Source of the DNA: Candidatus Krumholzibacteriia bacterium
GTDB lineage: Bacteria > Krumholzibacteriota > Krumholzibacteriia > JAJRXK01
DNA length: 64,000 nt
Direction: 5' to 3'
NCBI GenBank assembly: GCA_041484665.1
Contig: JBGPIA010000003.1
Coordinates: 160,001 to 224,000, forward strand
Shown here: positions 34,021-61,865 of the stretch, piece after piece
Numbering within the stretch: position 1 is the first letter of the stretch
How the letters are laid out: every line of letters starts with the position of its first letter
Translations under genes and position numbers: made by a program
Notes under the pieces: model-generated
What the model saw: the letters and a program-made list of their open reading frames with translations, nothing else
Told to the model about the DNA's origin: nothing
Databases searched by the model: none

Positions 34021-34120
34021 GACGGCTCCTTGCAGGAGGCCGGGGCGCGGGAAGCGTGAAGGCGGAGGCGCGCGGGAGGCGCACGGTCGGCAGAGCCTGG
34101 CAGCGTAGTGACCGGTCGAG

Positions 34121-36406
34121 CTACACAAGCCCCCAGCGCTTGCGCAACGCCCATTCAACTGCCAGGGAGCCCAGCAGCGGTAGCAGCAGCCAGAGGCTGT
34201 CCCACAGGTCGATGCGCCCGGTCAGGACGCTGTCCCGCGCGTGCAGCGGCAGCTCGCGGGCCCAGCGGTCGAGCTCGTCTGGGCGCAGCGTCCGGCCCCC
34301 GGTCATCTGCGCGATGCGCGTCAACGACGCGCGGTCGACCTGGGGATGGCGGAACTCCACCGAGTAGGGATCGATCTCCAGACGCGACCACGGGGCGGTT
34401 ACGCGCCCGGACTTCTCCTCCATGGCCAGGCGCAGCGCGTAGCGCCCCGGCGGAAGCGCCGGCAGGGCGATGGTTCGTCCACCGGGATTGTGCGGATCGA
34501 TCTGCATCGGCGCGCGCCCGGTGGGCTGCGCCGTGGTGTCGCCGGGCGCCACCTCTCCGGCAAGCCACTCGAGCCAGACATCGCTGACGTCATCGGGCTG
34601 CAAGCGCGGATCCAATGCCAGCCCGTGGAGCATGACGTCCTCGCCGGTGGCGAACACGGGCCGCGGTAGAACCAGGCGCAGGCGCGTGCGGTCGCCACCC
34701 TCGGCCAGGAAATAGAGCAGGTTGCCCAGCAGCGCCTCGAAGACGTCCTCGGTCTGCGTCTCGCCCAACCGCCAGAACGACCACGACCACAGCGGCGCGC
34801 CCAGCCACGCTGCCACCGTGCCCTGCCCTCGCTTGCGCACGACCAAGAGCGGTGTGGAGGTGGCCTCGGCCTGCGCACGCAGCAGCTCGTCGGTGTCGGC
34901 GGTCAGGGTGGCGCCGTGCAGCACCTGCCAGAGCGGTGGCAGCTCGTTCAGGCGTTCGTCGAGCGCGCCCAGCTCGGGCGGAAGCAACATCACCGGATGG
35001 CCGCGTCCGGTAGGTGTGACGCGCACGCGGTAGCGCCCCTGGACCCAGCCGGCGCCCGCGCCGAGTCCCAGGGGGAGCAGATCGCGAGCGTTGCGCGGTA
35101 ACGCCGAGAGGTCGACGCTGGAGCCCGGGGGCGCCTCCCCCAATAGTACGAGCAGCCCCGCGCCGCCCTCGATCGCCGCTGGCACCGCGCTGCCTTCCGC
35201 GCACAGCGTGGCGAGATCGGTGAGCGAGCCGGCGATCCAGGTATCGACCCGCCGCGCCTGCCGGGGTGAGGTGGGAACCGTCCAGCTGCTATCGGTGCCC
35301 GCCACCCGCCAGCCATCCTCGGCCCGGTAGACGCCGGTGAGCTTGAAGCGGCGGTCCCGCGCCGTCCGGCGGGCCAGGAAGTGGAAGTTCCAGCTGGGAC
35401 GCTCCTCCAGGAGCACCAGGCGCAGCCGCTCCTTGCGCACCTCCACTCCGACCTGGGCGGCGTTGTTCTGCTGCAGGTGCTCCCCCGGCGCGGGCTCGAC
35501 GCGCAGGGTCCACGAGCGCATCCCCAGACTGTCGGCTCGGACGCGGAAGGTGATCGGGAAGCGCCCCCCGCCCTGCGGCCACTGCACGCGCACGCTGTCC
35601 ACCGGCCCGCGCTCCCCGCGCAGGACCGCCGTAGTCGAGCCCGCCGCGATCCCATCGGCGACCACCTCGGCGTCGACTTGCAGGGTCTCGCCGCGATACA
35701 CCAACGGCGGGTAACGCACGCGATCGAGGCGCAGGTCGGCGGGCCCGATGCTGTCCCCGACGGCCACTGCGTACACGGGCACGTGGATCCCTTGCAGCGA
35801 GGGCGAGCGCGCAGCGGTAGTCACGCCGTCGGTGAGCAGCAGGATGGCGGCGAGGTTGTCCTCGAGGTGGTGCTGGGCGGCCGAGATCAGCAGGGCGGGC
35901 AGGTCGGTGCCCTCGCTGCTAGTGGAGGTGGAGGGAGGCACGGCCTCGCTCAAGGGCACCGAGGCGTGCAGGCGTGTGGAGCCTTCCCCGGCCCACAGCC
36001 GCGCGCCCTCGCCGCGGCCGCGCAACCGGGTGAGCGCCTGATCGCGGAGCGCGCGCGCCTGCTGGGCGCGCGTCATGCCTCCCTCGCCCTCGATGCCCAT
36101 GCTCCCGCTGTCATCGGTGAGCACGAGCACGCCCGGCGCAACGTGCACCTGCTTCTGCTGCTGCAGCACCGGCTCGGCCAGCATCGCAACGAGCAGAAAC
36201 AGCGCCAGCGCGCGCAGCGACGTGAGCGCGGCGCGCCGGACGCCTGCGAGCTCGGGCTCGGTGCGCCGGTAGACCAGGGTCGCAAAGACGATCCCGGCCG
36301 CGGCTAGGGCGACACTCAAAGCCAGCGCGCCGGTGCCGCCTGCCGCAAAACGCAGCGTGGCCGCAGTCGAAGTGGTCAGCGTGAAGGGGCTCGCGGAAGG
36401 AGTCAC
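34121..36406 (-). CDS. Membrane-anchored vWA-like / Ig / GATase-like multidomain protein
   Basis: Two N-terminal TMs ('LRALALFLLVAMLAEP'), MIDAS-like 'DDSGSM', 'LLTDG', 'PVYAV.VG', 'E...NN' Ig end, 'WSW.FW', C-terminal TM 'EWALRKRWGL'. Confidence 0.8.
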   Translation of the reverse strand: MTPSASPFTLTTSTAATLRFAAGGTGALALSVALAAAGIVFATLVYRRTEPELAGVRRAALTSLRALALFLLVAMLAEPVLQQQKQVHVAPGVLVLTDDSGSMGIEGEGGMTRAQQARALRDQALTRLRGRGEGARLWAGEGSTRLHASVPLSEAVPPSTSTSSEGTDLPALLISAAQHHLEDNLAAILLLTDGVTTAARSPSLQGIHVPVYAVAVGDSIGPADLRLDRVRYPPLVYRGETLQVDAEVVADGIAAGSTTAVLRGERGPVDSVRVQWPQGGGRFPITFRVRADSLGMRSWTLRVEPAPGEHLQQNNAAQVGVEVRKERLRLVLLEERPSWNFHFLARRTARDRRFKLTGVYRAEDGWRVAGTDSSWTVPTSPRQARRVDTWIAGSLTDLATLCAEGSAVPAAIEGGAGLLVLLGEAPPGSSVDLSALPRNARDLLPLGLGAGAGWVQGRYRVRVTPTGRGHPVMLLPPELGALDERLNELPPLWQVLHGATLTADTDELLRAQAEATSTPLLVVRKRGQGTVAAWLGAPLWSWSFWRLGETQTEDVFEALLGNLLYFLAEGGDRTRLRLVLPRPVFATGEDVMLHGLALDPRLQPDDVSDVWLEWLAGEVAPGDTTAQPTGRAPMQIDPHNPGGRTIALPALPPGRYALRLAMEEKSGRVTAPWSRLEIDPYSVEFRHPQVDRASLTRIAQMTGGRTLRPDELDRWARELPLHARDSVLTGRIDLWDSLWLLLPLLGSLAVEWALRKRWGLV

Positions 36407-36525
36407 TCTGCTTCGCTCACCGCGAGAGGCGCCAACTGCCCCGCGCGAGCCGCGCCCGGATGGGGGCCGGCTCCGCGTGCCGCGGGACCGGGAGGCGGTG
36501 GGATGTCGCAAGACAGTCTACGGCG

Positions 36526-36558
36526 AAAAGCAGCGGCTCCGCCAGTGAGGCGGAGCCG
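36526..36558 (-). terminator. Probable intrinsic terminator after the STAS gene
   Basis: Perfect 10-bp stem CGGCTCCGCC-TCACT-GGCGGAGCCG followed by CTGCTTTT on the minus strand. Confidence 0.65.
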
Positions 36559-36595: not shown

Positions 36596-36961
36596 TCAGG
36601 AGGCGTGGGCGACGGCGGCCACCCGGGCATCCTCGACGGTGGGATAGGCCTCGAGGATGTTCTGGAACTCCAGCAGCTCGAAGACCTCGTAGACGTCGGG
36701 CACCATTCCCACCAGCTTCAAATCGCCGCCATTCTCGCGGATCTCGCGGATGACCGAGATGAAGATCCCCCAGCCCGCCGAGCTGATATAGGAGACCTTT
36801 CCAAGGTCCACGATGAGGTTGTAGCGGCCGTTCTGGATGAGCCGCTTCAGCTCCCGTTCGAGGTCCACGGAGGTGGTGGTGTCGATGTACCCGGAGACCT
36901 CGAGGGCATCCAGGTTCGCCTTCGGATCGATGGTGCGCGTGGAAACCGAGATACCTTCCAT
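36596..36961 (-). CDS. STAS-domain anti-sigma-factor antagonist (RsbV/SpoIIAA family)
   Basis: 'VSGYIDTTT', 'LIVDLGKVSYISSAGWG' (phospho-Ser motif), 'GGDLKL', 'VYEVFELL'. AAGGAG RBS. Confidence 0.93.
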   Translation of the reverse strand: MEGISVSTRTIDPKANLDALEVSGYIDTTTSVDLERELKRLIQNGRYNLIVDLGKVSYISSAGWGIFISVIREIRENGGDLKLVGMVPDVYEVFELLEFQNILEAYPTVEDARVAAVAHAS

Positions 36962-37089
36962 CGCGTGCCCAGCTCCTTTGCGGCCGGCCCCAGGGGGCCA
37001 ACTCGTTGCGATTCTTCGTGTTGCTCCTGCAGCCGCCCCCGCACCGCGTGCCGGCCTTCTGCGGGCGGTCACAGGCCAGGACAGGTCCG

Positions 37090-37106
37090 TGCAAGGTTCG
37101 GTCCAA
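37090..37106 (-). promoter_or_regulatory. Candidate sigma54 (-24/-12) promoter for the STAS gene
   Basis: Minus strand TTGGACCGAACCTTGCA (GG-N10-GC). Confidence 0.55.
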
Positions 37107-37110
37107 CGAG

Positions 37111-39696
37111 CTAGGGCAAGGAGGGCACGGCCGCGTCCGGCGCTGCGGGGCCTGCCGGCCCAACGTCGGGCAGGTCAACGTCCGACGCCGTTGCGCCTGG
37201 CGAGAGCGCGCCCAGCGCCGGCGCGTTGTGCGGCGGGGCGCCGCTGCCGCCGCCACCGGATGCGGTCCCCGGATCCGCGGGGTTGCCGCCGGAGGTCGCC
37301 CCGGCGCGGGGCGCCCACCCGCGTCGCCGCAGGTACGCCAGACGCAGCTCCTTGTTGTTGAGGCGCATGCGCACCAGCTCGTCGTAGACCACCCGATCGT
37401 CGACCGTGTGGCCGGTCTCCTCCAGGAGCCCGGCCAGACGCTTCGCGCCCAGGTCGGGATGGGCGCGGATGTGCGCCAGGAGCGCCCGGCGCTCCTCCAT
37501 GTTGAGCCGCCGCAGGGGCGTGGCGGCGGCGGGTACGGGTGCGAGCAGACCCTGCTCGCCCCCCTCGTCGCGCAGCTTGCGCCACCGGTAGTACGTGGAG
37601 GTCGAGACGCCGTAGCGGCGGCAGGCCTCCTCGACCGCGATCGCGTCACGCTCCACCAGGTCGAAGAGGCCGCGCCGGCGTTCCGCCTCCAGCTCGGCGG
37701 GACGCAGCTTCTCCTTGATCGCGACCACCGTGATGTCGTCGTGCTGGGGGATCTCACCGGTGAAGGCGGCCACGTCGCGCTTGAGCTCCTCGATGAACTC
37801 GCCGGCACCGCGACGGCCGTGCTGGCGCAGGCAGGCCACCATCCGATCGATGCCATACTGCTCGCGCTGTTGGTTCATCGCTTCGGTCACGCCGTCGGTG
37901 TAGACCAGCAGCATGTCGTCCTGCTGCAGCTGCACCCGCTCGACGTCGATGGTGCGCCCGAAGAGGCCGGGATCGGGCAGCGAGATCCCCACGGGGAAAC
38001 CCCGCGGATTGAGGAAGAAGACCTCGTCGGTCTCTGCGCGCAGGAGCAGCATCGGGTTGTGGCCGGCCGACGAGTAGCTGATCACCCGGGTGTGCGAGTC
38101 GAGGATCACGTAGAAGAGCGTGATGAACATCCCCTTGCGCATGTCGTCGGTCACGAAGGCGTTCATGCGCGTCATGACGTCGGAGGCCGAGTAGTTGCCG
38201 CGGGCCTCCATGCGCAGGGCGGTGCGGATCATGGTCATCACCAGCGACCCGGGCACCCCCTTGCCCGAGACATCGGCTACGACAACCCCGATCGTGTCGT
38301 CGTCCACCACGACGAAATCGTAGTAGTCGCCACCGACCTCCATGGCCGCCTTGTAGAAGGCAGCGATATCGTAGCCGCTGACCTCCGGATAGCGCTTGGG
38401 GAGCAGCGTCTCCTGGATCTCGCGAGCCACCTGCATCTCCTTCTGCAGGCGCTCCTTCTCGACGACGTGGCTCTGGGCCTGGCGGAACTTCGCGGTGATC
38501 TCGTTGAAGGCCCGGGCGATGGTCGAGATCTCCTCGGGACCCTCCTCCTGGATCTCCTCGTGCAGCATGCCGTCGCCGATGGCGAGCACGCCCTCGGTGA
38601 GCCGCTGGATCGGCCGTACGAAGAGGTTGACCATCAGCGAGATGAGCACCATCCCCAGCACCAGTACGCCGATCCCCAACAGCAGCGTGCGGCGCAGCGC
38701 CCGGCCGATCTCGGAGGTGACCTGGTCCTTCGCCACGCCCAGCACCACCGTACCGACCTCCACCGGCGAGGCGCCCTGCCCTTCCAGGCGTACAGACGCG
38801 CGCAGCTCCCAGATGGCGCGCCCGGTGCCGTCCCGCAACGCGAGCCACTCGCCGCCGCTTCCGCGCCACAGCCCAACGCCCTCGCTGGGGCGGTACGGCT
38901 CGAAGATTCTGTCGAGGCGGCTGTCGCACCAGACCGTTCCGTCGAGCTTGCGGACGACCCGGACGTACACCAGAGCGGGGTCGTGGCGCACCAGATCGGA
39001 CACGCTCTGGTTCAGCAGCGTGCGCTCGAGGCCGTATGGCTTCCCCTCCGCGAGCACGCTCACGGCGTCGCCGGCCAGCTGGCGGGCGGTGAGCTCGATG
39101 CGGCCGCGGGCATCGCGCAGCGTCACGCTGCGCTGATGGCTGTAGACGACGCCCAGCGCGCAGGCCGTGAGCGCGCACAGGCCCAGGCTGGCGCGCAGGA
39201 AGAACTTCATGCGCAGGCTGTGGGTCAGCCCGGTGGGCTCCACGCCCGGGATCAGCCGATCCACCCAGCGGCGGCGGTCCAAGCGCAGCAGGAGCTCGTT
39301 GGTGCCATTGCGGCTGGTGTACGCCACCGCGTCCATGATCTGGTTGATCAGGTAGACGCCCAGGCCGCCGCGTTTGCCGATCGCCACGTAATGGTTGAGG
39401 TCGGGCGTCTGCACGGCGTCGAACTCGAACGACGCTCCTGTGTCGCGGATGCGGATGTCCAGGTGGCCGTGCCCGTAGCGCACCAGCAGCTCGATGGTGC
39501 CGCCGCCGTCGTGGTAGGCGTGACGAACGATGTTAGTGCAGGCCTCGTCGACGGCCAGCTTGCAGTTGCTGATCTCGACGGCAGAGATGCCGGCGCTGCG
39601 TCCGAGGCGCTCGATGAAGTCGCGGACCTCGCGTAGGTGGATCTCGCTGGCCTCGACCTTGAGGGTGGCGGTGCGCGCCGTGCGCCGGATCATCAC
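37111..39696 (-). CDS. RsbW-type kinase - TM - periplasmic domain - TM - HAMP - SpoIIE/PP2C phosphatase - transposase-like double-HTH fusion
   Basis: N-box 'LAVDEACTNIVRHAY', 'IRDTG', 'GGLGVYLI'. Two TMs. HAMP 'PIQRL...EISTIARAFN'. PP2C motifs 'VGGDYYD', 'DVSGKG', 'SAGHNP', 'TDGVTE', 'DDIT'. C-terminal 'VEEACRRYGVSTSTYYRWRK'. Confidence 0.9.
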   Translation of the reverse strand: MMIRRTARTATLKVEASEIHLREVRDFIERLGRSAGISAVEISNCKLAVDEACTNIVRHAYHDGGGTIELLVRYGHGHLDIRIRDTGASFEFDAVQTPDLNHYVAIGKRGGLGVYLINQIMDAVAYTSRNGTNELLLRLDRRRWVDRLIPGVEPTGLTHSLRMKFFLRASLGLCALTACALGVVYSHQRSVTLRDARGRIELTARQLAGDAVSVLAEGKPYGLERTLLNQSVSDLVRHDPALVYVRVVRKLDGTVWCDSRLDRIFEPYRPSEGVGLWRGSGGEWLALRDGTGRAIWELRASVRLEGQGASPVEVGTVVLGVAKDQVTSEIGRALRRTLLLGIGVLVLGMVLISLMVNLFVRPIQRLTEGVLAIGDGMLHEEIQEEGPEEISTIARAFNEITAKFRQAQSHVVEKERLQKEMQVAREIQETLLPKRYPEVSGYDIAAFYKAAMEVGGDYYDFVVVDDDTIGVVVADVSGKGVPGSLVMTMIRTALRMEARGNYSASDVMTRMNAFVTDDMRKGMFITLFYVILDSHTRVISYSSAGHNPMLLLRAETDEVFFLNPRGFPVGISLPDPGLFGRTIDVERVQLQQDDMLLVYTDGVTEAMNQQREQYGIDRMVACLRQHGRRGAGEFIEELKRDVAAFTGEIPQHDDITVVAIKEKLRPAELEAERRRGLFDLVERDAIAVEEACRRYGVSTSTYYRWRKLRDEGGEQGLLAPVPAAATPLRRLNMEERRALLAHIRAHPDLGAKRLAGLLEETGHTVDDRVVYDELVRMRLNNKELRLAYLRRRGWAPRAGATSGGNPADPGTASGGGGSGAPPHNAPALGALSPGATASDVDLPDVGPAGPAAPDAAVPSLP

Positions 39697-41726
39697 TCCC
39701 TCCCGCCGCCGCCCTCTGCATCCGCTGCCGCGCTCTGCTTCTCGCCCAGATGCTCCATGCGCGTGCGCGCCTCACGGATGTTGCTCAGCGCTCCCGGATT
39801 GCCGGGGTCGATCTGCAGGATCTGCTCCCACTGCGCGATCGCCTCGCCGTAGAGCCCCGCGGTGAACTTGGAGAGCCCGGCGAGGTAGAGGCGCCGCACT
39901 TGCGCCTCGTGCTCGGGCGACAATGGCGCCGGACCTGCCAGCGCGCGGCGGGCGCGCTCCGCAAGCTCCCGGGCCTCGCGGTGCTCGGGAACCTGCGCGA
40001 GGATCTGCTGGGCAAGAGCCAGCGCCTGTTCCACCCGGCCGTCGGCGAAGGCCTGCAGCGCCTCGGTGTAGCGGTGCGCAAGCGTCAGCTGGGCCCCCGC
40101 TTGCGCCGCGCGCGTGCGGGCCCCTTGCAGATCGTCGCGCAGGCGCGCGATCTCCTGGTGCGCAGTGGAGTCTTGCGGCGCGAGCCGCAGCACGTCCGAC
40201 CACGCCTGCAGCGCCGCCAGCCAATCCCCCTGCTGCTGCGCCTGCCGCGCCGCGTCGGCCTGCTGCGCCGCCGCGGCTTCCAGCTTCACCGCCAGCTCGT
40301 CGCGGTAGCGGGCGAGCAGGGGGTGGTCGGCGGCGAGCTCCGCTAGCCGGTCGAATGCGCCACGCGCCCGCAGGGGATCGCCCCCGTCCAGTGCGGTACG
40401 CACCTGGTCGGCGGCCCCCGCGACGCGGGCAGCACGCTCGCGGAGATCCTGCGTCGAGACGGCCTCCTGCGCGCGGGCCGCGGCCAGCTCCTGCGCAACG
40501 GCGGCGACGTCCTGCGCGCTCGCGCGCAGGCCCGCCGCCCGCTGCAGCTCGCGCTCGGCGCCGGTCAGGTCAGAGGCCGCGAGCAGCCGATGCGCTTGCT
40601 GCAAGCTCGAGTCGGCCTGCGCCGCGAGCCAGGCCTGCACGGCCTGCTGCGTGGCCTGTTGCAGCGCGACGGCCCGTTGGCGCTCGGCGCGGTCGCGGCG
40701 CTCCGCGATCGTCTGCCCGACCCTCCAGGTGAGCGTGAAATAGTGGCTGGCCCCGAGCTCGCTGCCCGACTGGAAGGCGTAGTCCAGCGCATAGGCGCGC
40801 CAGCGACCGCCCGCGCCCACGCCCACGCGGCCGCCAGCCACACCCAGGCGCGCGCTCCACCCCGCGGGCAGCTCCGCCTCGGCGGCCAGACCGATGCGCG
40901 CGTCAGCATACTGGGCATGCTCGTAAGAGGCGGCCAGGCGCACGGACGGTCCTGGGCCGCTGCGCAGCTGCCAGCTCGCGGCGTAGCGCGCAGTGTGCGG
41001 CAGCGTGTCCTCGCGCTCGACCAGGCGGAACGAGGGAGCGATCACGTCCTGGAACGCGGCCGCCACCGAGAGCCGCGGCACGCGGGGCGGGTGGAAGCGC
41101 AGGCCGCAGTCGAGGCCGCCGCTGGTGGCGCTCTCCCCCACCTCCAGCCAGTGCACCTTGGCCGTCAGGCCCAGGTCCACGCGTCCGCCCAGCCACGGGA
41201 TCCGCACGCCGCTGCCGTACCCCAATAGGAGTTGCGTTTGCGCGAAGTCGATGCTACCCGTCGGGCGGCTGGCCGCATCGTAGGCGGGGATGCCGCTCAC
41301 GCCCACGCGCAGCAGCGCCACCCCGAAGCCGCCCGCACCCAGCGTCGGCACGACTACGCCCGCGTATTGCAGGGTCGTCCCATCGGGCCCTGCGGCCAGA
41401 CGGTTGTGGCTGAAGCTGAGCTGCGTGATGGGAGCGCGGCGCAGCAACGCCGGGTTCCAGAACGTTGCACTGGCGTCCTCCCCCAGCACGACCATGGAGG
41501 CGCCGAGGCTGATCCCACGTGCGGTGGGGCCGAAGCGGAACGGTCCCTCGGTGCCACCGCCATCGTCGGCGGCGGCGGGCCCCGCCGGGAGAGCCGCCAG
41601 AGCCGCCAACTCCAGGAGCACGACGCCGGCCAGCCAGGCGGCCGTGCGGCCAGCGCCCGCACCTCGCGCGTTCCGGTCACGCACGTCAAGCGCGCCGCCG
41701 CGCTGCGGGAGTAGCCGTGCGCTCAT
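39693..41726 (-). CDS. PorV/PorQ (FadL-like) outer-membrane beta-barrel fused to a coiled-coil/TPR region
   Basis: Signal peptide and PorV-type N-motif 'GPTARGISLG.S....EDASATFWNPALL'. Barrel end 'LDYAF...ELGASHYFTLTW'. C-terminal TPRs 'GLYGEAIAQWEQILQIDPGN'. Confidence 0.85.
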   Translation of the reverse strand: MSARLLPQRGGALDVRDRNARGAGAGRTAAWLAGVVLLELAALAALPAGPAAADDGGGTEGPFRFGPTARGISLGASMVVLGEDASATFWNPALLRRAPITQLSFSHNRLAAGPDGTTLQYAGVVVPTLGAGGFGVALLRVGVSGIPAYDAASRPTGSIDFAQTQLLLGYGSGVRIPWLGGRVDLGLTAKVHWLEVGESATSGGLDCGLRFHPPRVPRLSVAAAFQDVIAPSFRLVEREDTLPHTARYAASWQLRSGPGPSVRLAASYEHAQYADARIGLAAEAELPAGWSARLGVAGGRVGVGAGGRWRAYALDYAFQSGSELGASHYFTLTWRVGQTIAERRDRAERQRAVALQQATQQAVQAWLAAQADSSLQQAHRLLAASDLTGAERELQRAAGLRASAQDVAAVAQELAAARAQEAVSTQDLRERAARVAGAADQVRTALDGGDPLRARGAFDRLAELAADHPLLARYRDELAVKLEAAAAQQADAARQAQQQGDWLAALQAWSDVLRLAPQDSTAHQEIARLRDDLQGARTRAAQAGAQLTLAHRYTEALQAFADGRVEQALALAQQILAQVPEHREARELAERARRALAGPAPLSPEHEAQVRRLYLAGLSKFTAGLYGEAIAQWEQILQIDPGNPGALSNIREARTRMEHLGEKQSAAADAEGGGGRE

Positions 41727-44700
41727 CGCGTCACCGCGATCCGGAAGAACGACTGCTGCCCGCCGGCACGGATGCGACAGACGTAGAGCCCGCTGCGCAC
41801 GTCCTGGCCGCGTCCGTTGAGCCCGTCCCAGTGCACGTCACCGTCGTGCAGGCCCGCCGCTGCCTGCGGCTCACCGGCAGCGAAGCTCCACTGGCGTACC
41901 GGATTGCCGAGCAGGTCGAAGATGGAGATCTCCACGGAACCGCCTGCCGCGAGCGAGTACGCGATGACCGCCGCCTCACGGCTGGGCACGAAGGGATTCG
42001 GGTAGCTGTGCGCGGAGGCTGCGAGCGCCGCCGGCGAGCGCACCGAGAGCGCTGATGTCACATCGGTGCGCGGCGCGCCATGCAGATCGGTGAGCTGCAC
42101 CGCGACGGCGGTGCCGTCCGGGGCCTGGGCGGCAATGCCGGCGGCGCTCTGCACGCGCAGGGCGAACGGGACGAAGCTGCCGCCCTCCGCCGCGCGCGCC
42201 GCCAGGTGGAAGCCCCGCGCTTGCCCCGGAGCGAGGGTGGCCGTCAGAGCGATGGACGCGGGGTTGCCCGCCACCGCGCTGCTCCAGCGCGCGCCGGAGA
42301 CGTCATCGGTCACCGCGAGCTCCGCGAGCGTGCCCGCCGGATCTGGCAGCAGGCTGCCGCCGGCGTCCACCATCCACACCGACAGGGACGTCCACTGCAC
42401 GGCCGCGGAGCTGCCGTTGGAGAAGCCCAGCTCCATGCGGTCGCGCAGCGCGCTCCCCGCCACGATCGGCCCCTCGCCGACGGCGTCACCCGCCGCCAAT
42501 CGCACGAGGCTGGAGACCGTCGCCAGGGGCAGACGCACGGCGCGCGCCGCGTCGCCTGCGGGCAGCCCGCTGTTTGCATCCAGCGGCACGGTCGCAAGTT
42601 GCAGCACGAGCTGGTCCACGCCTGCGCCCGCGACCGCCGGCGCTTGCAGCGTCCACAGCGCCGTGTCGGCTGCAGTGGCGAGCGTCACGATCGCCACCGA
42701 CCCGCCGGTGAAGGGGTACTGTGGCGGCGGCGTGAGGCGCAGCGCGGACGGCCCGGCAAGGGTGGCGCTCCCAGCGGCCTGGATCCAGCCCTTCACCGTG
42801 ACCTGGGCGCCGGGATACACCTGGCCAAAATCGCGCGCGCTGGCCGGAGCCGCGAGCGCGCCCGCAGCCTCGGCGCGGGCGGCCTGCTCGACGGCGACGG
42901 CCAGCGTCGCGCAGGTCTCGGCCACGGCCTGACCGCTCTGCACATCGGTGGCGCTGGCGACCAGGCGGATCTGCAGCTGCGACGCCGGTGTGGCCGGCGC
43001 CTGCACGCGCCAGGAGGCGGTGTCCACGCCGGCCGCGAGCGCGCGAAGCGGGTCGCCTCCGGGCAAGGAGAGCGCAGGCGGCAGCAGCAGACGCAGCGCG
43101 CGCTGCTGCAGGTTGGGCGGAGCGCTCGCGCTTCCGCGCACCGTGAAGCTCTGCCCCGCGCTCAACCGCAGGTCGGCGGCTCCCGGCGGCGCGACCACGG
43201 CCAGCGCGCATGCGTCGATGCCTTGGCCGCCCTGCACGTCCAGCTGAACGCTGGCGCTGGTCTGGGTCGTGAGCGCGACCCGCGCGGGATCGTTGCGGTC
43301 GAGGCGGTCGCCGGCCAGCAAGGCGACGAGCGTGGTGAGGCTGGCCTGCGTCGGGGCGCGCAGCTGTAGCACGACCGCGGACTGCACTGGCGAGAGCAAC
43401 AGCGGCGCGGCCAGGGGCGGCTCCAGCGTGAACGGCGAGAGCGCCGGAAAGGTCACCTCCACCGGCAGCCAGTCGCCTTGGCCGTCCAACGGCGGCACAT
43501 GATCGAGCGCCACGCGCAGCGCCACGAGCTGACCGGGAGTGACCGCAGCGTGCAACGGATCGGCGCTGCCCGGCAGTGTCACGCTGAACGCGAGGCGAAC
43601 GGGACGCTGGACCTCCAGCGCCTGCACGTTGTCCAAGGGCGCCAGCTCCGGCACGGGCAGCCCGGTGTTGGCCGAGCGCGCGCGCGTGACGCGCGCGACC
43701 AACGTCTCCGCGCCCAGCGCGCTGGTCACCGCGACCTGGAAGTCCAGGGAGTCGACGGCCCCCGCGGCCAGGCGCGAGAGCACGGCCGGCGCCGCGCTGC
43801 TGGGCGGCGACATCGTGCCGGCCACGACCACTGTCAGCGAATCGACGGCCTCCTGGCCGCTGTTGCCCACCGCCACGCGCGCTCGGATGATCTGGCCCGC
43901 ATCGACCTGCGGTTGGGGCGCGCGCGGGTGCAGCGTGCGCGTGGACAGGATGCGCAGGCCCGCCGGCTGCTCCACCGTCAACGGGGTCTCGGCCTGCGCG
44001 GCCAGCCCTGCCCCATCGAGCACGTCCTGCGCGGCCGCGCTCACCCGCGCCAGTCCTCCGCCGGGCTGCGACCCAGCGCGCAGCACGCTGTAGCGCAGCA
44101 CCCCGCGTTGCTGGCCGTCCAGCAGCAGGCCGCCGCCGGCCAGCAGACCACCCGGCGCCGTCACCAGGTAGTCGGCCTGGGGCTGCCCCGCCAGAAGGAA
44201 TGTCACGTCCTGCGGCTGCGGCGCGGCAATCCGCAGCGGCGCGTCGCCAGCGTTGTGCACGTCCAGATCGATACTGAAGGCCGAGGTCTGCCCCGCGGTG
44301 ATGCGGTCGATGGGCGAGAGCGCTCCGTCGCGGACGATGACCTGCTCGGCGATGAGTGCCGCCGGAGCCACCGTCAAGAGCAGCAGTGAATCGCGCTCGG
44401 CGGAGGGCTCCAGCGCCGCCGGGCGGTTCCCGTAGCGGTCCACCGCCGCCACCAGCTGCACGCGCAGCCATTCCGCGGCGCCCGGCTGCGGTGCCGCCGG
44501 AATCGCCAGCGGTACGGTCGCCGTGTCGGTCAACTCCGGCCAGATCAGCGCGCTGTCGACGCGCCCCAGGGCGGAGCGCACCCGCAGCTGCACCGCGTCC
44601 GCGACCCCATCCCCGCGGTTCGCCAGACGGATGACGAGGGTGGCCGTCCCCCCCGCATCGACGCGGATCCGTCCGGGCTCCGGCGCGATCTGCGCGCCCA

Positions 44701-47700
44701 CGGCCCGGCCGGTCAGGCCGTTCAGCGCGACCTGCGGCGGCTGCGGCAGCGGGACGGCCGCCACCAGCGAGTCGGCGAGCAGCCGGCCGCTGTTGACCTC
44801 CTCGACCTGCACGCGCGCGGAGAGCGTCAGCGTGCCTGCCGTGGGCAATGGCCCCTGCGCCACGAACATGAGGCTGTCGGCGCCACCGGCCGGCAACAGC
44901 AGCGTCGCCGATCCGGCCCATGTCGCAGGCGTCAGCGTGGCGGCCAGCGGCCACGCGCCCAAGCCGGCGCGCGCGGAAAGCGCCGTGGCCGGTGGGAGCG
45001 GGCGCAGGCGTACCGTGCTGCCGCCACCATTGCGCACCGCCAGGCGGACCGAGAACGGGGCGACGCGGCCGGCGCTGAGCGTATCGGGCACGGCGCGCAG
45101 GGTCAGCGGCGCGAGCGCCGCGGGCGCCTGCACGAGCACCAGTCCGGATCCTCCGTCGCCCGAGCCGTCCTGCATCCGCTGCTGCGAGTTGAGGTCGACT
45201 GCCTCGACCTGCGGCAGCAGCACCAGCGGACCGGCAGTGGGTCCGGTCGTCAGCAGATCGACGCGCAGCGTGTCGGTCTCGCCGGCGTCCAGCCGTAGAT
45301 CGCCGCCGTCCAGCGCCGCGCGTGCCTGCGCCACGAAGCCCCCCGCCGCCGCACCCCCCTGCAGCAGGTCGAGACGCGTGCGTGTCGGGTCGGGGTCGAC
45401 GGCCAGCGGCGCCTGGCCATTGTTGCGCAGCGCGACCTTGACCAACCAGGGGCGCGCCTGTTGCGCGGTCACGGTGGCCTGGCTGGGAGCGGACGCCACG
45501 ATCTGCAGCGCAGCGGGCTGCTGCGCCAGCAGCGCCCCGGTCGCCAGTGGCAACGACAGTGCGACCACCGTCATGTTCTCGGTGCCGCGCAGCTCGACCA
45601 CCGCCGGCGGCGCGCCCAGCGTCAGGTCCAGGGGCAGATCCAGCGGCGCGAAGCGCAGGACCGTCTCGCCTGGCGGCAGCGCGCGCGGCCCCAGCGGATC
45701 GAGCGCCGCGCTCAGACGCGCGGCGGCCGGCTCGCCCAGGCGCAGCGTGGTCGCCAGGGGGTCCAGGTCCACGGCCGCCTCGCCGGAGTTCACCACGCGC
45801 ACCGTGAAACGCACGCTCGCTCCCAGGCTCACCGGGTTGGGCGAGAGCGCCGGCAGCGCCAGCGCGAGCGCAGCCGGCGCCTCCACACGTATGGCCGCGG
45901 GCCAGCGCAGCGTGTCGGCAAAGGCGCGGCCCAGCTCGTCTCCGCCGAGAATCAACACCAGGTCGAAGAGTCCAGGTGGGGCTGCCGCGTCGACCGTCGC
46001 GGCGGCGAACACGAGCTCGGTGGTGCCGCCGGCCGCCAACGCCATCGGTTGCGCCAGGGCCGCGGCCGCCGCGGCCGCCGCGCCGGTCTGCACGGTCGCG
46101 CGCGTGCGCGACGCATCGAGCGATACCGGAACGCCTCCGTCGTTGCGCACCTGGACGCGCAGCACCACCGTCGCGCCGCGGGAGACGCGCGCGGGGGTGA
46201 CGCCGCCCGCGACCGCGGCCAGCCGTGCGGCGGTGGACACCTGCAGCGGCAGCGCAGTCAGGCCGTCTTGGGCCAGGAAGTCGGCCGTGCCGCTGCGGCC
46301 GGCGACCTGGGCCCGGAAGCCGTAGAGGCCGGGCAGCGTGGCGGCGCCGACGCGCAGCCGCGTGCGGTGATCGATCTGCCCGCCGGGCGGAAGCAGCGGC
46401 AGCGCATCCTGTCCGACCGGCAGGAAGTCCCCCTGCGGCTGCGCGGCAATCGTCACGCTGGTGAGCTGCACCGGCGCGCCACCCACGTTGCGCACGCGCG
46501 CCACGACCTCCACCGTGTCCCCCACGACAGCGGCCACTGGCGCTACGCTCACCGCGGCCACCGCCAGCCCGCTGACGGCCAGCAGCCCGTCGGGTAGCAG
46601 CACCAGCCCCATGATGGGCTGGCCGTGCCCGTCCAGCCCGCCCAGGCGTACCACCGGACGATGCGCGCCGGGAGCGAAGGCGGAGTCCAGGGGCGCCGCG
46701 GCGAACCCCAGCAGCGCGGTGCCACCGCCGGGCACCAGCACGCCGCCCGCCAGCGCCGCGACGTAGGTCGCGCCCGCGCCCTCATCGAGCTCGAAGGTCG
46801 TGCCAGCGGCCGACAGCAGCGCGTCGGCCTGCCCGGCATTGCGCAGGCGCAGCGTGAAGGACACGGTCTCGCCCGGGGCAACCACCATGGGCGCGAGGGC
46901 GCCGTCGAAGACCAGCGCCGCGCGCTCCTCGAACGCCGCCTGGGCGCTGCCGGCGGCTGCACCCGCCACGAACGTCACCGTGGCCACCCCCGCCGAGATC
47001 GGCGCCACCAGGCGCGCCTCGACCTGGCCAGCGGCATCGGTGGCGCGCTGCAGGCCCGGCGTGAGCGGATCGAGGTCGTCGAAGAGCAGCGCTCCCAGCG
47101 TGCTGGCGATCGTCACCGGCGTGCCGGGGGCGACCAGGTTGCCCCAGGTGTCGGTCACCGGCCCGGCCGTGAGCCGCGTCGTCGCCAGGCCGTCGGCGGT
47201 ATTCACGGGCGGGTCGACACCCGGTACGGGGATCATGCCCGCGGGCGGACCGGCCAGCACCGCCCTCGGCCCTAGCGCCCCGCCGACCGCTGGCGCGGGA
47301 TCCCAGGACGCCCCAATCGTGAGCGTGCCCGCTCGCGATGCGGTGACGTCCACGCTGGCCGTACCGAAGGAAAGCGTAACCGGGTTGGGCGCGGTGGCGC
47401 TGCCTTGTGGGGAGAATGTCATGGTCACCGTGCCGGAGGCAGACACGAGATTGCCGGCGGCATCCAGCAGCGCGAGCGTCACGGCGCGGGGGACACCTGC
47501 CGTCAGCGCGCCCGGCGCCGTGGTCAGCTCGAGGGTGGCCGGCGCTCCCGCCGTGCCCGTGACGTGCCAGCGCAAGCTTTCCAGCGCGGCGGGTGCGCGG
47601 TCGAGGATGCTGGCCCGCACCTCGTGCACGCCGGCGTGCGCGGAGAGCGCGAGGGTGGCCTGCGCCTCGCCCTGGGCATCGGTACGCGCGATCCCGTCGT

Positions 47701-50668
47701 CGGGTGGCGGCGTCGCATCGCTCAGTGACGCGCCCGGCGGCGCAGAACGCAGCTCCAGGCGCACGGGCTCGCCGGCGACTGGATTGCCGTAGCGGTCCAG
47801 CACGCGCGCAAGCAGCGCCGACTGCGCGCCCGCCGCGATGACCACGGACGTGTCGGCCACGGCGACGATGCGGTACGCCAAGGCCGCCGTCACGGCGATG
47901 GCCGCGCTCGTGTCGGTGACAGCCGGCGCGGCGAGCAGCGCGGCGGTCACGCGCGCGCTGCCCGCGGCGGTGTCGGCTAGCGTGGCGCTCAGCAACCCGG
48001 AGGAGAGCGCGGCGCTCGAGGGAACGATGGACGCGCCCGCCCCCAGTGCGCCCAGCACGACCACGTCGGTGGCATCGTCGACGCGGTTGCCCGCAACGTC
48101 GACGGCCTCCACCTGCACCGGCACGGTCTGTCCGGCGGTGAGCGTGTTCGACGACGGCGTGAGCCGCAAGGCGGTGATGGCTCCGCTGCGCGTGAAGACC
48201 ACGAGCGTCCGCGTCTCGCGCGCGACGGGAACGCCATCGAGGATGGACAGGCGCAGGCGCGCCATTCCAACCTGGGAGTTCGTGCGCAGACGCGCGCTGC
48301 TGCGCCCGTCGAGCCCCGTGGCGCCGGGAGGGGACTCGAGCGTACCACCCTCGACCAGCACCGCCGTCACGGCGATCCCAGCAACGGCGTTGCCCCGCGC
48401 GTCGCGGGCCTCGACCTCGGCTGCTACCACGTCTCCCGCCACGATGCCGCGGAGCGTGTCGGGCCCGACGCTGACGAGCTCGAAGGCAGCGCCGGGGAGC
48501 ACCACCGTGGGCGGGCCCACGTATCCGCGACCCGCGGCACTGACGCGCAGCCGCAGCGTGAGGGCGCGGGTGACGCTCTGCAAGTTGGTCGTGAACGAGC
48601 CCGCGCCGAGCTGCCCGCTGGCGACGGCCAGTGTGGCGGGCGCGACGGCGGTCGTGTCGCTGGCGAGGACGGCGTCGAGGTGGAACGCTGTGCTGGCGTC
48701 CGCCGCGAAGTTCCCGAAGGCATCGAACCCCACCACCGTCATCGGGAACGGCGCGCCTGCCACGACCGTATCGGGCGCGCTGACGGTAAAGCTCGCCACC
48801 TGGCGGCCGGCGATCACCGTGACGCTCACGCTGTCACCAGCCAGCACGGCTGCTGGGTCCGTCACCGTCAGGGTGTGCGTGCCTGCCGGTCCGCCACGCC
48901 ACCAGCGCTGGGCGCTTCCACCCACGGAGACGGCCAGCGGGCTGACGAAGGGACCGGCGATGGACGCGCAGAGGCCGATGCCGCTGCTGGGGGCGGCGGC
49001 GACGCTCAGCGTGGCGAGGGCGTTGGTGTCGACGTTGCCATGTGCGTCGACCAGCGTGATGGCGAGTTGCCCGAGCTCCTCCCCCGCGCGCACGGGTCCG
49101 CTGGGCGGCTGCAGGCGCACCGCCACGGCTTGGCCCGGCCGGCTGGTCAACACGAGATCGCCGACCGCGCTGGCGGGCAGCCCGGGCGCGACCGCGTCGA
49201 GCCGGTCGGTGCGCCCGGCCTGCGTCGCCGCCCGATACAGGACGTGCACGCGTCCGTCGCCGCCCGTGCTGCCCCGCTGCTGCGCCACGCCGAGCGAGTC
49301 GGTCTCACCGGCGGAGGCCAGCGCGCCGTCGAGCGGATCGGTCACCAGCACGGTGACCTCCACTCCGGCCACGCCGTTGCCGAAGGCGTCGGTGGCACGC
49401 GCGGCCACCGTGGTCACCGAGCCCGCCTCGACGTCCACCGCGCCGTTGGGCAGCAGTGCGAGCGCCGCGAACGGCCCCGGACTCGCCGTCGCGTGGAAGA
49501 CGACCGTGTCGCCGAAGTCGGCGACGGCGAGCAACGTCTGGCTGCCGGCCACGGTCGCCAGCGTCCAGCGCGAGCAGCGCGCCAGCCCACCTTGGTCGGT
49601 GAGCGCGCTGGTCTGGTCCCCCGGAGTGCCCAGATCGGTGTCGGCCGATCCGTCGCCCATGGGCTGGAACGTGACGGTGCGCGCGGCTACGGAATTGCCA
49701 AAGGCGTCCAGCGCACGGACGGCAGGCGCCTGCGACACGGTCGCCGCCACAAGGGCCGTCTGGCCGTCGCCTGCCGCGGCCAGCAGCGACTGGGGAGCGG
49801 CAGCCTGCACGTCAAGCGTGGCGCCGCCACTGAGAGGGCCGTTCTGCGCGGTGATGTGCAGCGTCTCAGCGCGCGTGTCGCTGAGCGTGAGCTGCACCTG
49901 GCCCGAGTCGCCGGGAGCGAACGTGTACGCCGCCGCGCCGGGTGAGGTCGGCACGAGCGCACCCGCGCCCGCGGCGGACCAGGAAATATTGGTGCCGTCA
50001 CCGGCAGTGTCGGTCGCCAGCGCGGCGGTTCCGGCGTACGGCGCGACGCGATTGCCGAACGCGTCCACGGCGGCGAGCACGAGGACGTGCGGCGTCCCGG
50101 CGACGGTGCAGCCGCCTTCGGGCTGGAGGTCGAAGAGCGCCGCGGGCCCGGCCACCAGCGTGAAGGGGTCGCAGAGGGCCGGGCCCTCGAGCGTGGTGCC
50201 GGTGGCGTCGCGGGACTCCAGAGTGACCGTCGCGCTCCCCGCGCGGGTCGCATTGCCCACGCCCAGCAGCTCAATGGTCAACGCACCGGCGACGAGGGGA
50301 GCGCCGGTGATGGCCAGGACCGCCACGCTGTCCTGGACCGCCAGGATCACGCTCGCGGCGCCAAGGCCGCTGGTGGGGCCCAGCGCGGCCGACGCCAGCG
50401 TGAAGCCCGCTGGATAGCCGATGCGCAGCGAGCCACCGGCCTCGATGTCCACCTCCGTCGCGAGCATCACGACGTGGCTCGTGGTCGAGCCGACCACGTC
50501 GCTGGCGGGCGCAACGGCGCCCCCCGACAGCGCGTGCGCTGGCGAGGCCTGCCCCATCGCGAGCAGAGCGATGATGAGCAGTGCCGCCGGTCGTGCGACG
50601 CGCCGGCCGGCCCGCGCGCGCGATGCGCGCCGGAGGGATCGCTGGAGGGAACGCTGCATGCTCGCCAT
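41723..50668 (-). CDS. Giant (~2980 aa) secreted Ig-repeat surface protein (invasin/Big_1-like and CARDB-like repeats) with FlgD-Ig/T9SS-like C-terminal domain
   Basis: Signal peptide ending '...ASPAHA'. Repeated 'DAFGN/DAxGN' Big_1-like modules ('GDGQTA.V'). Second half has repeats 'P..V..G....F.V.V.N.G'. C-terminal 'SYPNPF...IFDLLG..VR...WDG.N..G..V.SGLY'. Confidence 0.9.
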   Translation of the reverse strand: MASMQRSLQRSLRRASRARAGRRVARPAALLIIALLAMGQASPAHALSGGAVAPASDVVGSTTSHVVMLATEVDIEAGGSLRIGYPAGFTLASAALGPTSGLGAASVILAVQDSVAVLAITGAPLVAGALTIELLGVGNATRAGSATVTLESRDATGTTLEGPALCDPFTLVAGPAALFDLQPEGGCTVAGTPHVLVLAAVDAFGNRVAPYAGTAALATDTAGDGTNISWSAAGAGALVPTSPGAAAYTFAPGDSGQVQLTLSDTRAETLHITAQNGPLSGGATLDVQAAAPQSLLAAAGDGQTALVAATVSQAPAVRALDAFGNSVAARTVTFQPMGDGSADTDLGTPGDQTSALTDQGGLARCSRWTLATVAGSQTLLAVADFGDTVVFHATASPGPFAALALLPNGAVDVEAGSVTTVAARATDAFGNGVAGVEVTVLVTDPLDGALASAGETDSLGVAQQRGSTGGDGRVHVLYRAATQAGRTDRLDAVAPGLPASAVGDLVLTSRPGQAVAVRLQPPSGPVRAGEELGQLAITLVDAHGNVDTNALATLSVAAAPSSGIGLCASIAGPFVSPLAVSVGGSAQRWWRGGPAGTHTLTVTDPAAVLAGDSVSVTVIAGRQVASFTVSAPDTVVAGAPFPMTVVGFDAFGNFAADASTAFHLDAVLASDTTAVAPATLAVASGQLGAGSFTTNLQSVTRALTLRLRVSAAGRGYVGPPTVVLPGAAFELVSVGPDTLRGIVAGDVVAAEVEARDARGNAVAGIAVTAVLVEGGTLESPPGATGLDGRSSARLRTNSQVGMARLRLSILDGVPVARETRTLVVFTRSGAITALRLTPSSNTLTAGQTVPVQVEAVDVAGNRVDDATDVVVLGALGAGASIVPSSAALSSGLLSATLADTAAGSARVTAALLAAPAVTDTSAAIAVTAALAYRIVAVADTSVVIAAGAQSALLARVLDRYGNPVAGEPVRLELRSAPPGASLSDATPPPDDGIARTDAQGEAQATLALSAHAGVHEVRASILDRAPAALESLRWHVTGTAGAPATLELTTAPGALTAGVPRAVTLALLDAAGNLVSASGTVTMTFSPQGSATAPNPVTLSFGTASVDVTASRAGTLTIGASWDPAPAVGGALGPRAVLAGPPAGMIPVPGVDPPVNTADGLATTRLTAGPVTDTWGNLVAPGTPVTIASTLGALLFDDLDPLTPGLQRATDAAGQVEARLVAPISAGVATVTFVAGAAAGSAQAAFEERAALVFDGALAPMVVAPGETVSFTLRLRNAGQADALLSAAGTTFELDEGAGATYVAALAGGVLVPGGGTALLGFAAAPLDSAFAPGAHRPVVRLGGLDGHGQPIMGLVLLPDGLLAVSGLAVAAVSVAPVAAVVGDTVEVVARVRNVGGAPVQLTSVTIAAQPQGDFLPVGQDALPLLPPGGQIDHRTRLRVGAATLPGLYGFRAQVAGRSGTADFLAQDGLTALPLQVSTAARLAAVAGGVTPARVSRGATVVLRVQVRNDGGVPVSLDASRTRATVQTGAAAAAAAALAQPMALAAGGTTELVFAAATVDAAAPPGLFDLVLILGGDELGRAFADTLRWPAAIRVEAPAALALALPALSPNPVSLGASVRFTVRVVNSGEAAVDLDPLATTLRLGEPAAARLSAALDPLGPRALPPGETVLRFAPLDLPLDLTLGAPPAVVELRGTENMTVVALSLPLATGALLAQQPAALQIVASAPSQATVTAQQARPWLVKVALRNNGQAPLAVDPDPTRTRLDLLQGGAAAGGFVAQARAALDGGDLRLDAGETDTLRVDLLTTGPTAGPLVLLPQVEAVDLNSQQRMQDGSGDGGSGLVLVQAPAALAPLTLRAVPDTLSAGRVAPFSVRLAVRNGGGSTVRLRPLPPATALSARAGLGAWPLAATLTPATWAGSATLLLPAGGADSLMFVAQGPLPTAGTLTLSARVQVEEVNSGRLLADSLVAAVPLPQPPQVALNGLTGRAVGAQIAPEPGRIRVDAGGTATLVIRLANRGDGVADAVQLRVRSALGRVDSALIWPELTDTATVPLAIPAAPQPGAAEWLRVQLVAAVDRYGNRPAALEPSAERDSLLLLTVAPAALIAEQVIVRDGALSPIDRITAGQTSAFSIDLDVHNAGDAPLRIAAPQPQDVTFLLAGQPQADYLVTAPGGLLAGGGLLLDGQQRGVLRYSVLRAGSQPGGGLARVSAAAQDVLDGAGLAAQAETPLTVEQPAGLRILSTRTLHPRAPQPQVDAGQIIRARVAVGNSGQEAVDSLTVVVAGTMSPPSSAAPAVLSRLAAGAVDSLDFQVAVTSALGAETLVARVTRARSANTGLPVPELAPLDNVQALEVQRPVRLAFSVTLPGSADPLHAAVTPGQLVALRVALDHVPPLDGQGDWLPVEVTFPALSPFTLEPPLAAPLLLSPVQSAVVLQLRAPTQASLTTLVALLAGDRLDRNDPARVALTTQTSASVQLDVQGGQGIDACALAVVAPPGAADLRLSAGQSFTVRGSASAPPNLQQRALRLLLPPALSLPGGDPLRALAAGVDTASWRVQAPATPASQLQIRLVASATDVQSGQAVAETCATLAVAVEQAARAEAAGALAAPASARDFGQVYPGAQVTVKGWIQAAGSATLAGPSALRLTPPPQYPFTGGSVAIVTLATAADTALWTLQAPAVAGAGVDQLVLQLATVPLDANSGLPAGDAARAVRLPLATVSSLVRLAAGDAVGEGPIVAGSALRDRMELGFSNGSSAAVQWTSLSVWMVDAGGSLLPDPAGTLAELAVTDDVSGARWSSAVAGNPASIALTATLAPGQARGFHLAARAAEGGSFVPFALRVQSAAGIAAQAPDGTAVAVQLTDLHGAPRTDVTSALSVRSPAALAASAHSYPNPFVPSREAAVIAYSLAAGGSVEISIFDLLGNPVRQWSFAAGEPQAAAGLHDGDVHWDGLNGRGQDVRSGLYVCRIRAGGQQSFFRIAVTR

Positions 50669-50785
50669 GGCCCGCAGTCCACGCGGTGGCGCCCGCGGCG
50701 GCGCGTGATCGCGCAGGGGGTGGGCGGCTCCCCGGCGCGCGGGCAGCGGCGGGACAGCCGATTGCGGGCAACCGCGCACGGGAGG

Positions 50786-50800
50786 GCAACTTCCGTGCCT
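50786..50800 (-). promoter_or_regulatory. sigma54 (-24/-12) promoter of the giant-protein operon
   Basis: Minus strand AGGCACGGAAGTTGC, a near-perfect match to TGGCACG-N4-TTGC, about 120 nt upstream of the ATG. Confidence 0.75.
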
Positions 50801-50955: not shown

Positions 50956-51447
50956 CTAACCGGGCTTGCGCATCTCGTCGAGCTTGCGCAGGCCCTCCAG
51001 CATCAGGTACTCGAGGCTGACGTCCAGGAGGATGTCCTCGTTCTCGGGGAAGATCATGCTGTAGAAGGCGAAGGTACCATCGGTCATCCCCACGAGCTGG
51101 TAGACGACCTCCTTGATCTGGTCGGTGACGGCGGTCTTGAGGTCGGACTCGGTGATCCCACCGCTCTCCACGAGGATCTGGCCGATGCGCTTGCCCCGCG
51201 CCATCTCGGCCTTCATTTTGGCGCCTTCGAGCTGGGACGGCTGGAGGATGCCCTTGCGCACCAGATACTCCCCCAGGCGCTCCATCTCGGCGTCGGTGCG
51301 CGCGTAGATCAGATTGCCCTGGTGGAAGTACACCCGGGCCTTCTGCGACGGGCCCACCAGCACGAGCTTACCCGTCGCTTCGGCCAGGTGAAGGAGTTGG
51401 AAGATGTTCGCCACCCCGAAGAGATCGATCCGGCCGCGCAGGTCCAA
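50956..51447 (-). CDS. DUF4388 (PatA-N-like) protein with inserted MshEN-like motifs
   Basis: 'LRGRIDLF....IFQLL....TGKL....VYF.QG..IYA', 'RLGEYLV..G..', 'RIGQILV..G', 'G.F.F', 'LMLEGLRKLDE'. GGAGG RBS before TTG. Confidence 0.88.
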   Translation of the reverse strand: MDLRGRIDLFGVANIFQLLHLAEATGKLVLVGPSQKARVYFHQGNLIYARTDAEMERLGEYLVRKGILQPSQLEGAKMKAEMARGKRIGQILVESGGITESDLKTAVTDQIKEVVYQLVGMTDGTFAFYSMIFPENEDILLDVSLEYLMLEGLRKLDEMRKPG

Positions 51448-57032: not shown

Positions 57033-57105
57033 GCCGCCCCCCTGTTCGACCTTGTGCCCATTGCCGTCCAGTGCCCCTGCCGCGCAGTCCGCCACGCCCC
57101 CCGCC

Positions 57106-59415: not shown

Positions 59416-59487
59416 GACTCGAGCACCTCCACTTGCGCTGCGCAAGCGGCGCCGCGGGGCAGGGCCGCGGCGCCGCGAACGGTCCAC

Positions 59488-61710: not shown

Positions 61711-61835
61711 GGTCACCCCACGACCCCCCCTGGTTCCCGTCAACGGCCAGGCACGATTTGAAGAGGTACTGGCGAAAAGCGTCTCGGTGGGGACGAGATG
61801 CGGGTCGATCGTCTGAGCCGGCAAAAGGCGCTGGA

Positions 61836-61865
61836 AAGATAGGGGCTTGCCTTCGCGGCTGTCAA
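61836..61865 (-). promoter_or_regulatory. sigma70 promoter for the lipoprotein cluster
   Basis: TTGACA-N18-TATCTT. Confidence 0.65.

Follow-up and report, generated by a model that had tools for sequence, protein, structure and literature searches.

The question raised by this locus is whether a giant exported protein, a barrel protein and an inner-membrane signalling enzyme, encoded side by side, could act as one chain across the bacterial envelope. The window analysed here, a 64-kb stretch from a Candidatus Krumholzibacteriia bacterium, contains four minus-strand genes that ORF analysis shows to be co-oriented and tightly packed (Table 1), with GC3 values of 0.81-0.92. An earlier note on this DNA had described such a set of four, and ORFs and domain matches confirm it. 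That note had also coupled the first three genes by ATGA overlaps; the giant/barrel junction (41726/41723) is indeed ATGA, but the barrel/receptor junction (39696/39693) is GTGA/TGATG instead.

Table 1. Features of the four-gene locus, in window positions; receptor domains are in residues.
Feature	Position	Strand	Length or residues (aa)	Basis
Terminator-like hairpin 3' of STAS gene	36534..36558	-		hairpin scan and relatives
STAS anti-anti-sigma-type protein	36596..36961	-	121, from ATG	STAS match
Inner-membrane receptor	37111..39696	-	861	domain matches and model
Receptor: RsbW-like kinase (HATPase_c_2)			15-138
Receptor: sCache-like periplasmic domain			about 188-335
Receptor: HAMP			355-400
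Receptor: PP2C/SpoIIE			465-661
Receptor: two IS481-like HTHs			674-795
PorV/PorP/FadL-like barrel fused to helical TPR tail	39693..41726	-	677	profiles and structure model
Giant Ig-repeat exported protein	41723..50668	-		ORF, domains, relatives
C-terminal T9SS/FlgD-like domain, module-specific subtype	41726..42025	-		profile searches
Sigma54 (-24/-12)-type promoter motif GGCAC-N5-TTGC	50786..50799	-		conserved upstream of giant gene in relatives

The frame of the first gene is open from GTG 50779 (3018 aa) and from ATG 50668 (2981 aa). The ATG is the likelier start, because the sigma54-type motif would start transcription near 50774, downstream of the GTG; signal-peptide-like residues 1-46 follow this ATG, with a hydrophobic N-terminus that ends in AHA (read by eye). 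Matches to Big_1 (4 stretches) and CARDB, both Ig-like, agree with the Ig-repeat protein of about 3000 aa reported before, and the giants of relatives span 2000-3700+ aa where complete. Family searches found no enzyme domain, and neither they nor an ESM Atlas search with the first 897 mature residues identified a binding domain; the Atlas returned unnamed clusters at 0.90-0.91 and Ig-like families below 0.8. Self-BLAST found no repeat pairs. The Ig-like repeats suggest the label of putative adhesin.

The C-terminal domain (CTD) of the giant had been called FlgD/T9SS-like. There is a weak match to the T9SS type A CTD (TIGR04183), but at 20 bits it misses the curated cut-off of 23, and the domain is better described as a distinct subtype. 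FlgD_ig exceeds its cut-off in one relative (28.6 vs 27), and the type B family CHU_C has no match in the giant and stays below its cut-off in another relative (16.7 bits vs 27). A profile built from 29 CTDs of other phyla ranked the three barrel-adjacent CTDs of this genome first among 206, at 86, 77.5 and 76.5 bits against at most 60.5 for the rest of the genome. With other-phylum profiles overall the three stood at the top of 206-208, and a generic CTD profile placed the same three 179th, 184th and 194th of 219. By these profile scores, the giant's CTD is a distinct subtype that goes with dedicated barrels. About 200 C-termini genome-wide match the CTD profile. The genome encodes the SprA translocon (484.5 bits vs a cut-off of 200), whose gene, like that of RpoN, precedes the window by 15-35 kb on its contig. 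A search for the GldM motor gave no match in the genome and matched no control genome either; the genome may possibly carry a T9SS without the known motor.

For the second protein, the claim of a PorV-like barrel with a TPR tail of about 300 aa fared well, with PorV the best match in both sequence and structure and the TPR present. The structure model (pLDDT 88.9, pTM 0.58, so that the relative domain orientation is uncertain) has 14 barrel strands at about residues 101-336, with an N-terminal hatch, followed by an all-helical tail of ~330 aa (about 340-671) with about five units of a long helix plus a TPR hairpin. The best PDB match of the barrel is PorV bound to a cargo CTD (8gl6_F), and FadL structures come next. 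Against the PorV/PorQ family NF033709 it scored 44.2 bits, below the cut-off of 90, alongside a TPR match, and the barrel of one relative exceeds the cut-off of Pfam PorP_SprF (32.4 vs 22.3). The barrel has no match to UPF0164 (PF03687), clusters of which ranked only 8-10 in a search by features that also gave Zixibacteria and Elusimicrobiota clusters. The N-terminus of such barrels is periplasmic and an even number of strands keeps both ends together, so the 14 strands of the model would place the tail on the periplasmic side rather than outside the cell. The best-conserved part of the whole protein is its last TPR (0.53 vs 0.36-0.47).

The HATPase_c_2, HAMP, SpoIIE and IS481-like HTH domains of the receptor were matched and its catalytic residues are intact, as expected of the kinase/phosphatase/HTH receptor with a periplasmic domain that had been proposed. 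Residues E51, N55, D85, G87, G110, G111 and G113 of the kinase and D457, D475, D601, D653 and D654 of the PP2C domain are invariant in 83 aligned sequences. The hydrophobic (TM) segments lie at 166-184 and 338-356, and Pfam sCache_3_2 was matched in relatives; the periplasmic domain is poorly conserved (0.34), with 1 of 148 sCache columns at least 80% conserved. The structure model has a pTM of 0.54, which leaves relative domain orientation uncertain. The PP2C domain of SiaA is the best fold match for that of the receptor, which scores 66.7 against the cut-off of 700 of the SiaA model NF038263. There is no central REC domain; a TM-sCache-TM-HAMP arrangement is found instead. The HTH region, compared with PDB sequences, gave only a non-significant match to the Sleeping Beauty transposase (E 0.18).

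The fourth gene most likely starts at ATG 36961, which matches relatives. Its product has a STAS domain in which alignment to solved anti-sigma antagonists puts Ser61, within YISSAGWG, at the acceptor position, which we take to be that of the phosphoacceptor, and the motif recurs in 86 of the 92 free STAS proteins of type I. An RsbV-like role is thus predicted, as before, and the parts of an Rsb partner switch are all present: RsbW-type kinase, PP2C and STAS with acceptor Ser, with catalytic residues intact. A domain search of the neighbouring genes found no cognate sigma factor encoded in the locus.

The motif ahead of the giant gene, which resembles the sigma54 consensus, is at chance level by itself, with 2 seen in the window vs 1.75 expected. 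Its conservation bears out the promoter that had been proposed: among relatives' type I loci with 450 nt of flank, 18 of 22 have it 5' of the giant gene, where fewer than 0.07 per 650 bp are expected. By group, the counts are 5/5 in the same family, 11/11 in the phylum of genome G208 and 2/6 in others; one type I locus lacking it is a frameshift fragment, and Calditrichota are not in the count since their giant starts fell outside the fetched regions. Among type II loci the motif was found upstream in 2 of 10. RpoN is encoded in the genome, and a sigma54 activator gene at 5930-7639 (-) of the window, with a sigma54-like motif inside its own 5' end (7596-7609), is a candidate activator for the operon. 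A sigma70 scan gave 0 sites and an Rfam search of window positions 34000-54500 gave 0 matches. Terminator-like hairpins are likewise at chance level on their own (3 found vs 3.6 expected); a comparable hairpin and T-run follow the STAS stop clearly in 3 of 5 same-family relatives and weakly in a fourth.

Full-length receptor matches (E <=1e-100) occur in 90 of 208 genomes of the window's phylum, one each, and in none of its families f2 (0/91) and f6 (0/12); in 80 of 86 genomes of Calditrichota, the phylum of G209; and in 18/20 and 22/81 genomes of two further phyla. The receptor is nearly always single copy, and the closest proteins carry the NCBI names Krumholzibacteria and Latescibacteria. 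Comparing the flanks of 40, 20, 13 and 15 receptor loci of four phyla, selected for the length of their contigs, we found the barrel-TPR gene directly upstream in 38/39, 19/20, 13/13 and 15/15, together 85/87. A CTD protein lies ahead of the barrel in 34/36, 17/19, 0/13 and 14/14, and STAS follows the receptor in 38/39, 20/20, 0/13 and 13/14. The synteny of PorV-TPR and receptor genes, for which the earlier note had proposed a search, extends across four phyla, with STAS beside them in three. At type II paralogous loci the barrel-TPR gene directly precedes the receptor in 15 of 16. Barrel and receptor genes are separated by no more than 45 nt in 71 of the 86 loci compared. The upstream barrel is missing at L104, L147 and L077. 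No CTD protein was found ahead of the barrel in 2/36, 2/19 and 4/16 loci, nor in any of the 13 from the phylum of G210. Generic SpoIIE loci served as a control: of 34 with 2300 nt or more of upstream sequence, 8 encode HAMP and none has a barrel-TPR gene directly upstream. Since loci of kin are not independent, these counts are best read as four lineages and not as 87 events.

Which parts belong together most closely is seen where the operon has come apart. In the phylum of G210 it lies in three pieces, with barrel and receptor still 3-44 nt apart in 13 loci and STAS adjacent in none of them; in 5 of 5 genomes tested a STAS ortholog (58-59%) and a module-type CTD protein (78-94 bits) were found elsewhere, four of the CTD proteins in frames of 4273-6593 aa and one of 1611 aa. 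Type II modules, of which this genome has one, retain the giant-barrel-sensor order. They have no HTH, and their kinase, either encoded by a gene of its own or joined to STAS, stands behind the PP2C. The one in this genome (L066, G000:C1:387000-401000) encodes a 3056-aa CTD protein, barrel-TPR, TM-HAMP-PP2C, a separate kinase, STAS and then a histidine kinase, with a sigma54-like motif upstream.

A reciprocal set of 20 regions, picked from barrel matches and mostly from family f2, contained 21 barrels. A CTD protein was directly upstream in 21/21 and a TM-sCache-TM-HAMP receptor directly downstream in all 20 with flank; 8 of these receptors end in PP2C and 12 in HD-GYP, with HD and GYP motifs intact. 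The HD-GYP output is found on the giant-barrel-sensor front end in f2 genomes (L159-L177), and in G146 (L166) an HD-GYP and a PP2C module stand in tandem. Because 12 of 21 paralogous loci pair the front end with HD-GYP in place of PP2C, the output is swappable. Quick trees of barrel and sensor largely share their groups, with HD-GYP forms nested at up to three points within the PP2C forms. Such agreement is expected for any genes of a common operon and does not demonstrate contact. Families f4, f5, f7, f8 and f9 have a receptor with three fused STAS domains, followed by genes for a ParA-type ATPase, a TPR protein and STAS; we rejected ParA and its TPR neighbour as core parts, as both occur in these families, ParA without the TPR protein also at L058, and are absent at this locus. 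Many free STAS proteins of two other phyla (11/20 and 11/13) come with their own copy of the second HTH of the receptor. One barrel of the present genome has no TPR tail, and no HAMP receptor stands beside it: at G000:C17 (L067:2103-16615) a 2409-aa protein with a module-type CTD precedes a barrel that ends in an FlgD-like domain, followed by a 1056-aa TPR protein and a TonB-C protein.

The tightest unit is thus the barrel-TPR protein with the sensor. Its output can be either PP2C or HD-GYP, one domain taking the place of the other, and the genome holds a second, paralogous module; the earlier note had seen none of the three. Synteny, split operons and swaps together mark out barrel-tail and sensor as the core that is conserved, with the giant as cognate cargo and the enzyme as an exchangeable output.

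On balance we lean towards an outside-in trans-envelope signalling chain as the function of this conserved four-gene module, every contact in which we infer. The SprA translocon would export the giant, whose special CTD would remain bound to the outer loops of its own barrel, like type B cargo on PorP/SprF. The claim that the barrel anchors the adhesin is upheld as regards a dedicated barrel and a matching CTD subtype; the anchoring itself is presumed. The helical TPR rod would hang into the periplasm, reaching, by an estimate from secondary structure, at most ~20 nm with its helices all in line, where its conserved distal TPR could touch the sCache-like domain. Engagement of the surface protein, or load on it, might then shift the HAMP domain and thereby tip the receptor towards its kinase or its PP2C activity. 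The phosphorylation state of Ser61 in STAS would follow from this, much as that of SypA is set by SypE. As no sigma factor is encoded nearby, output probably passes via STAS and the transposase-like HTH pair, and the HD-GYP fed by this front end in one family of relatives points to control of attachment or biofilm. Mutual information between barrel protein and sCache, a low-power comparison of 117 pairs, showed nothing above within-group shuffles. Synteny, CTD subtype, the predicted periplasmic tail, intact sites and sigma54 conservation all agree with the earlier note, whose interpretation is supported in part; none of the outcomes that it had named as refuting was seen.

Other readings of the same genes are less probable. 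The receptor might serve as a checkpoint that reads cargo loading of the barrel, or intact spacing between outer and inner membrane, instead of surface contact, and adjusts the expression of T9SS or envelope genes, following the precedent of PorA feeding PorXY-SigP (parts of PMC7712824). The pair's retention when the giant gene moves away would fit this, as would the near-core status of the module in two phyla (80/86 and 18/20); we nevertheless think it unlikely, since cargo of 2000-3700+ aa, where complete, goes far beyond what a loading reporter needs, and single genomes hold several modules with different giants (L066, L166).

It is somewhat more doubtful that the genes are co-regulated without contact, the barrel-TPR protein only anchoring the giant, with its TPR bound to peptidoglycan-associated or T9SS proteins as in PorP-PorE, while adhesion is controlled by a small ligand in the periplasm to which the receptor responds. 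sCache domains do usually bind small molecules, and the null covariation agrees with this. PorP-PorE-PG1035 is moreover a known static anchor with a TPR partner (parts of PMC9143113). Such co-regulation leaves unexplained why barrel and receptor, not barrel and cargo, are adjacent in 13 of 13 split operons, and why the two stay paired when one output domain replaces another.

Improbable, too, is a FadL-like importer passing a hydrophobic ligand along the TPR tail to sCache, with the giant as collector or bystander. A similar role has been proposed for treponemal FadL-like proteins with TPR tails (parts of PMC8407342), and FadL is the next-best fold match to a model that includes a hatch. Yet PorV is the best structural and sequence match, the distinct CTD subtype tracks these barrels, and a single well-conserved column in 148 suits one shared sCache ligand poorly. 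Least probable of all is inside-out control like that of an adhesin by LapD-LapG-LapA, in which a cytoplasmic state would act through receptor and tail to hold or release the giant: a gene of the c-di-GMP-binding DUF4388-MshEN type does lie upstream, and receptors of relatives can have as many as three STAS domains fused to them, but the former adjoins only in this family (5 relatives), no protease was found in the module, and both the PP2C and the HD-GYP forms retain intact catalytic sites, as output enzymes should.

Under the outside-in signalling chain that we favour, the module combines features of several known systems, while falling short of the defining tests of each of these families. 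In type B T9SS (SprB-SprF; PG1035-PorP-PorE) a large CTD cargo lies next to a dedicated 14-stranded FadL-family barrel anchor, and PG1035-PorP-PorE is further like the module in its TPR-containing periplasmic partner (parts of PMC9143113 and PMC12618676). Here, unlike there, the CTD is FlgD/type-A-like and not CHU_C, barrel and TPR form a single protein, next to which a signalling enzyme of the inner membrane is encoded instead of a peptidoglycan-binding OmpA lipoprotein, and the module occurs in phyla outside Bacteroidota. PorV-type carriers bind cargo on extracellular loops (parts of PMC10994853). SypE of Vibrio fischeri similarly joins an N-terminal serine kinase and a C-terminal PP2C in one protein that controls the STAS protein SypA, with no known cognate sigma in the parts of PMC3610818 and PMC8256260 consulted; its input is a REC domain, whereas the receptor has TM-sCache-TM-HAMP, an HTH pair and a linked barrel and giant cargo. 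SiaABCD of Pseudomonas aeruginosa is a phosphatase/kinase/STAS-like switch tied to aggregation and a c-di-GMP enzyme (parts of PMC7647112), but its kinase is separate, its acceptor is Thr68 and not Ser, and it has no barrel-TPR. TP0548, TP0859 and TP0865 of Treponema pallidum are predicted 14-stranded barrels with a periplasmic C-terminal helical TPR domain, for which a TRAP transporter is the proposed partner; their tail is one three-helix bundle, against about five units here (parts of PMC8407342). For PorA of Porphyromonas gingivalis, likewise a CTD protein, a role has been proposed in passing a surface signal on to a sensor of the inner membrane (parts of PMC7712824); PorA-PorV-PorXY-SigP has small cargo, a histidine kinase output and no fused periplasmic rod.

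Literature searches, with supplements that may hold gene-neighbourhood tables outside their scope, found no description of this combination. The module is a new assembly of known parts, real, conserved and undescribed in the papers searched. It is a serious possibility, if short of an expectation, that it forms a new class: a T9SS shuttle barrel turned receptor, whose fused periplasm-spanning TPR rod joins a 100-nm-scale surface protein directly to an sCache-HAMP sensor; plug-in outputs that are either a bifunctional Ser kinase/phosphatase with a DNA-binding domain that is transposase-derived and membrane-tethered or an HD-GYP phosphodiesterase; and a TonB-independent touch sensor for several deep-branching phyla. 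Were the tail-sensor contact true, it would establish a new class of trans-envelope signalling. Few systems that transfer surface contact across two membranes are understood, and this one would offer a simple physical path. T9SS shuttle barrels would gain a signalling role, with a further class of CTD/barrel specificity and T9SS biology beyond Bacteroidota. The module is near-core in Calditrichota (80/86 genomes), a phylum with cultured members, and the natural exchange of output domains means that a laboratory host can be given barrel, tail and sensor with a reporter as their output.

The neighbours of the locus are DUF4388-MshEN, PPDK and exported proteins. The gene with DUF4388 and the MshEN c-di-GMP-binding motif, at window positions 50956-51447 (-) upstream of the operon, was rejected as a core part, adjoining the module only in 5 same-family relatives. 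An exported protein with no Pfam or NCBIfam match (34121-36511, -) and an LTD-FlgD protein (32266-34158, -) come after the STAS gene, and the two trail it in the window's phylum and in that of G208. In 19 of 20 Calditrichota loci (L086-L105) the gene after STAS is what we take to be DUF4159-like. Further off in the window are a MASE9-HD-GYP protein (9112-10449, -) and, at 54567-61944 (-), a PorZ-like beta-propeller protein with a CTD and two ORFs of ~800 aa without family matches.
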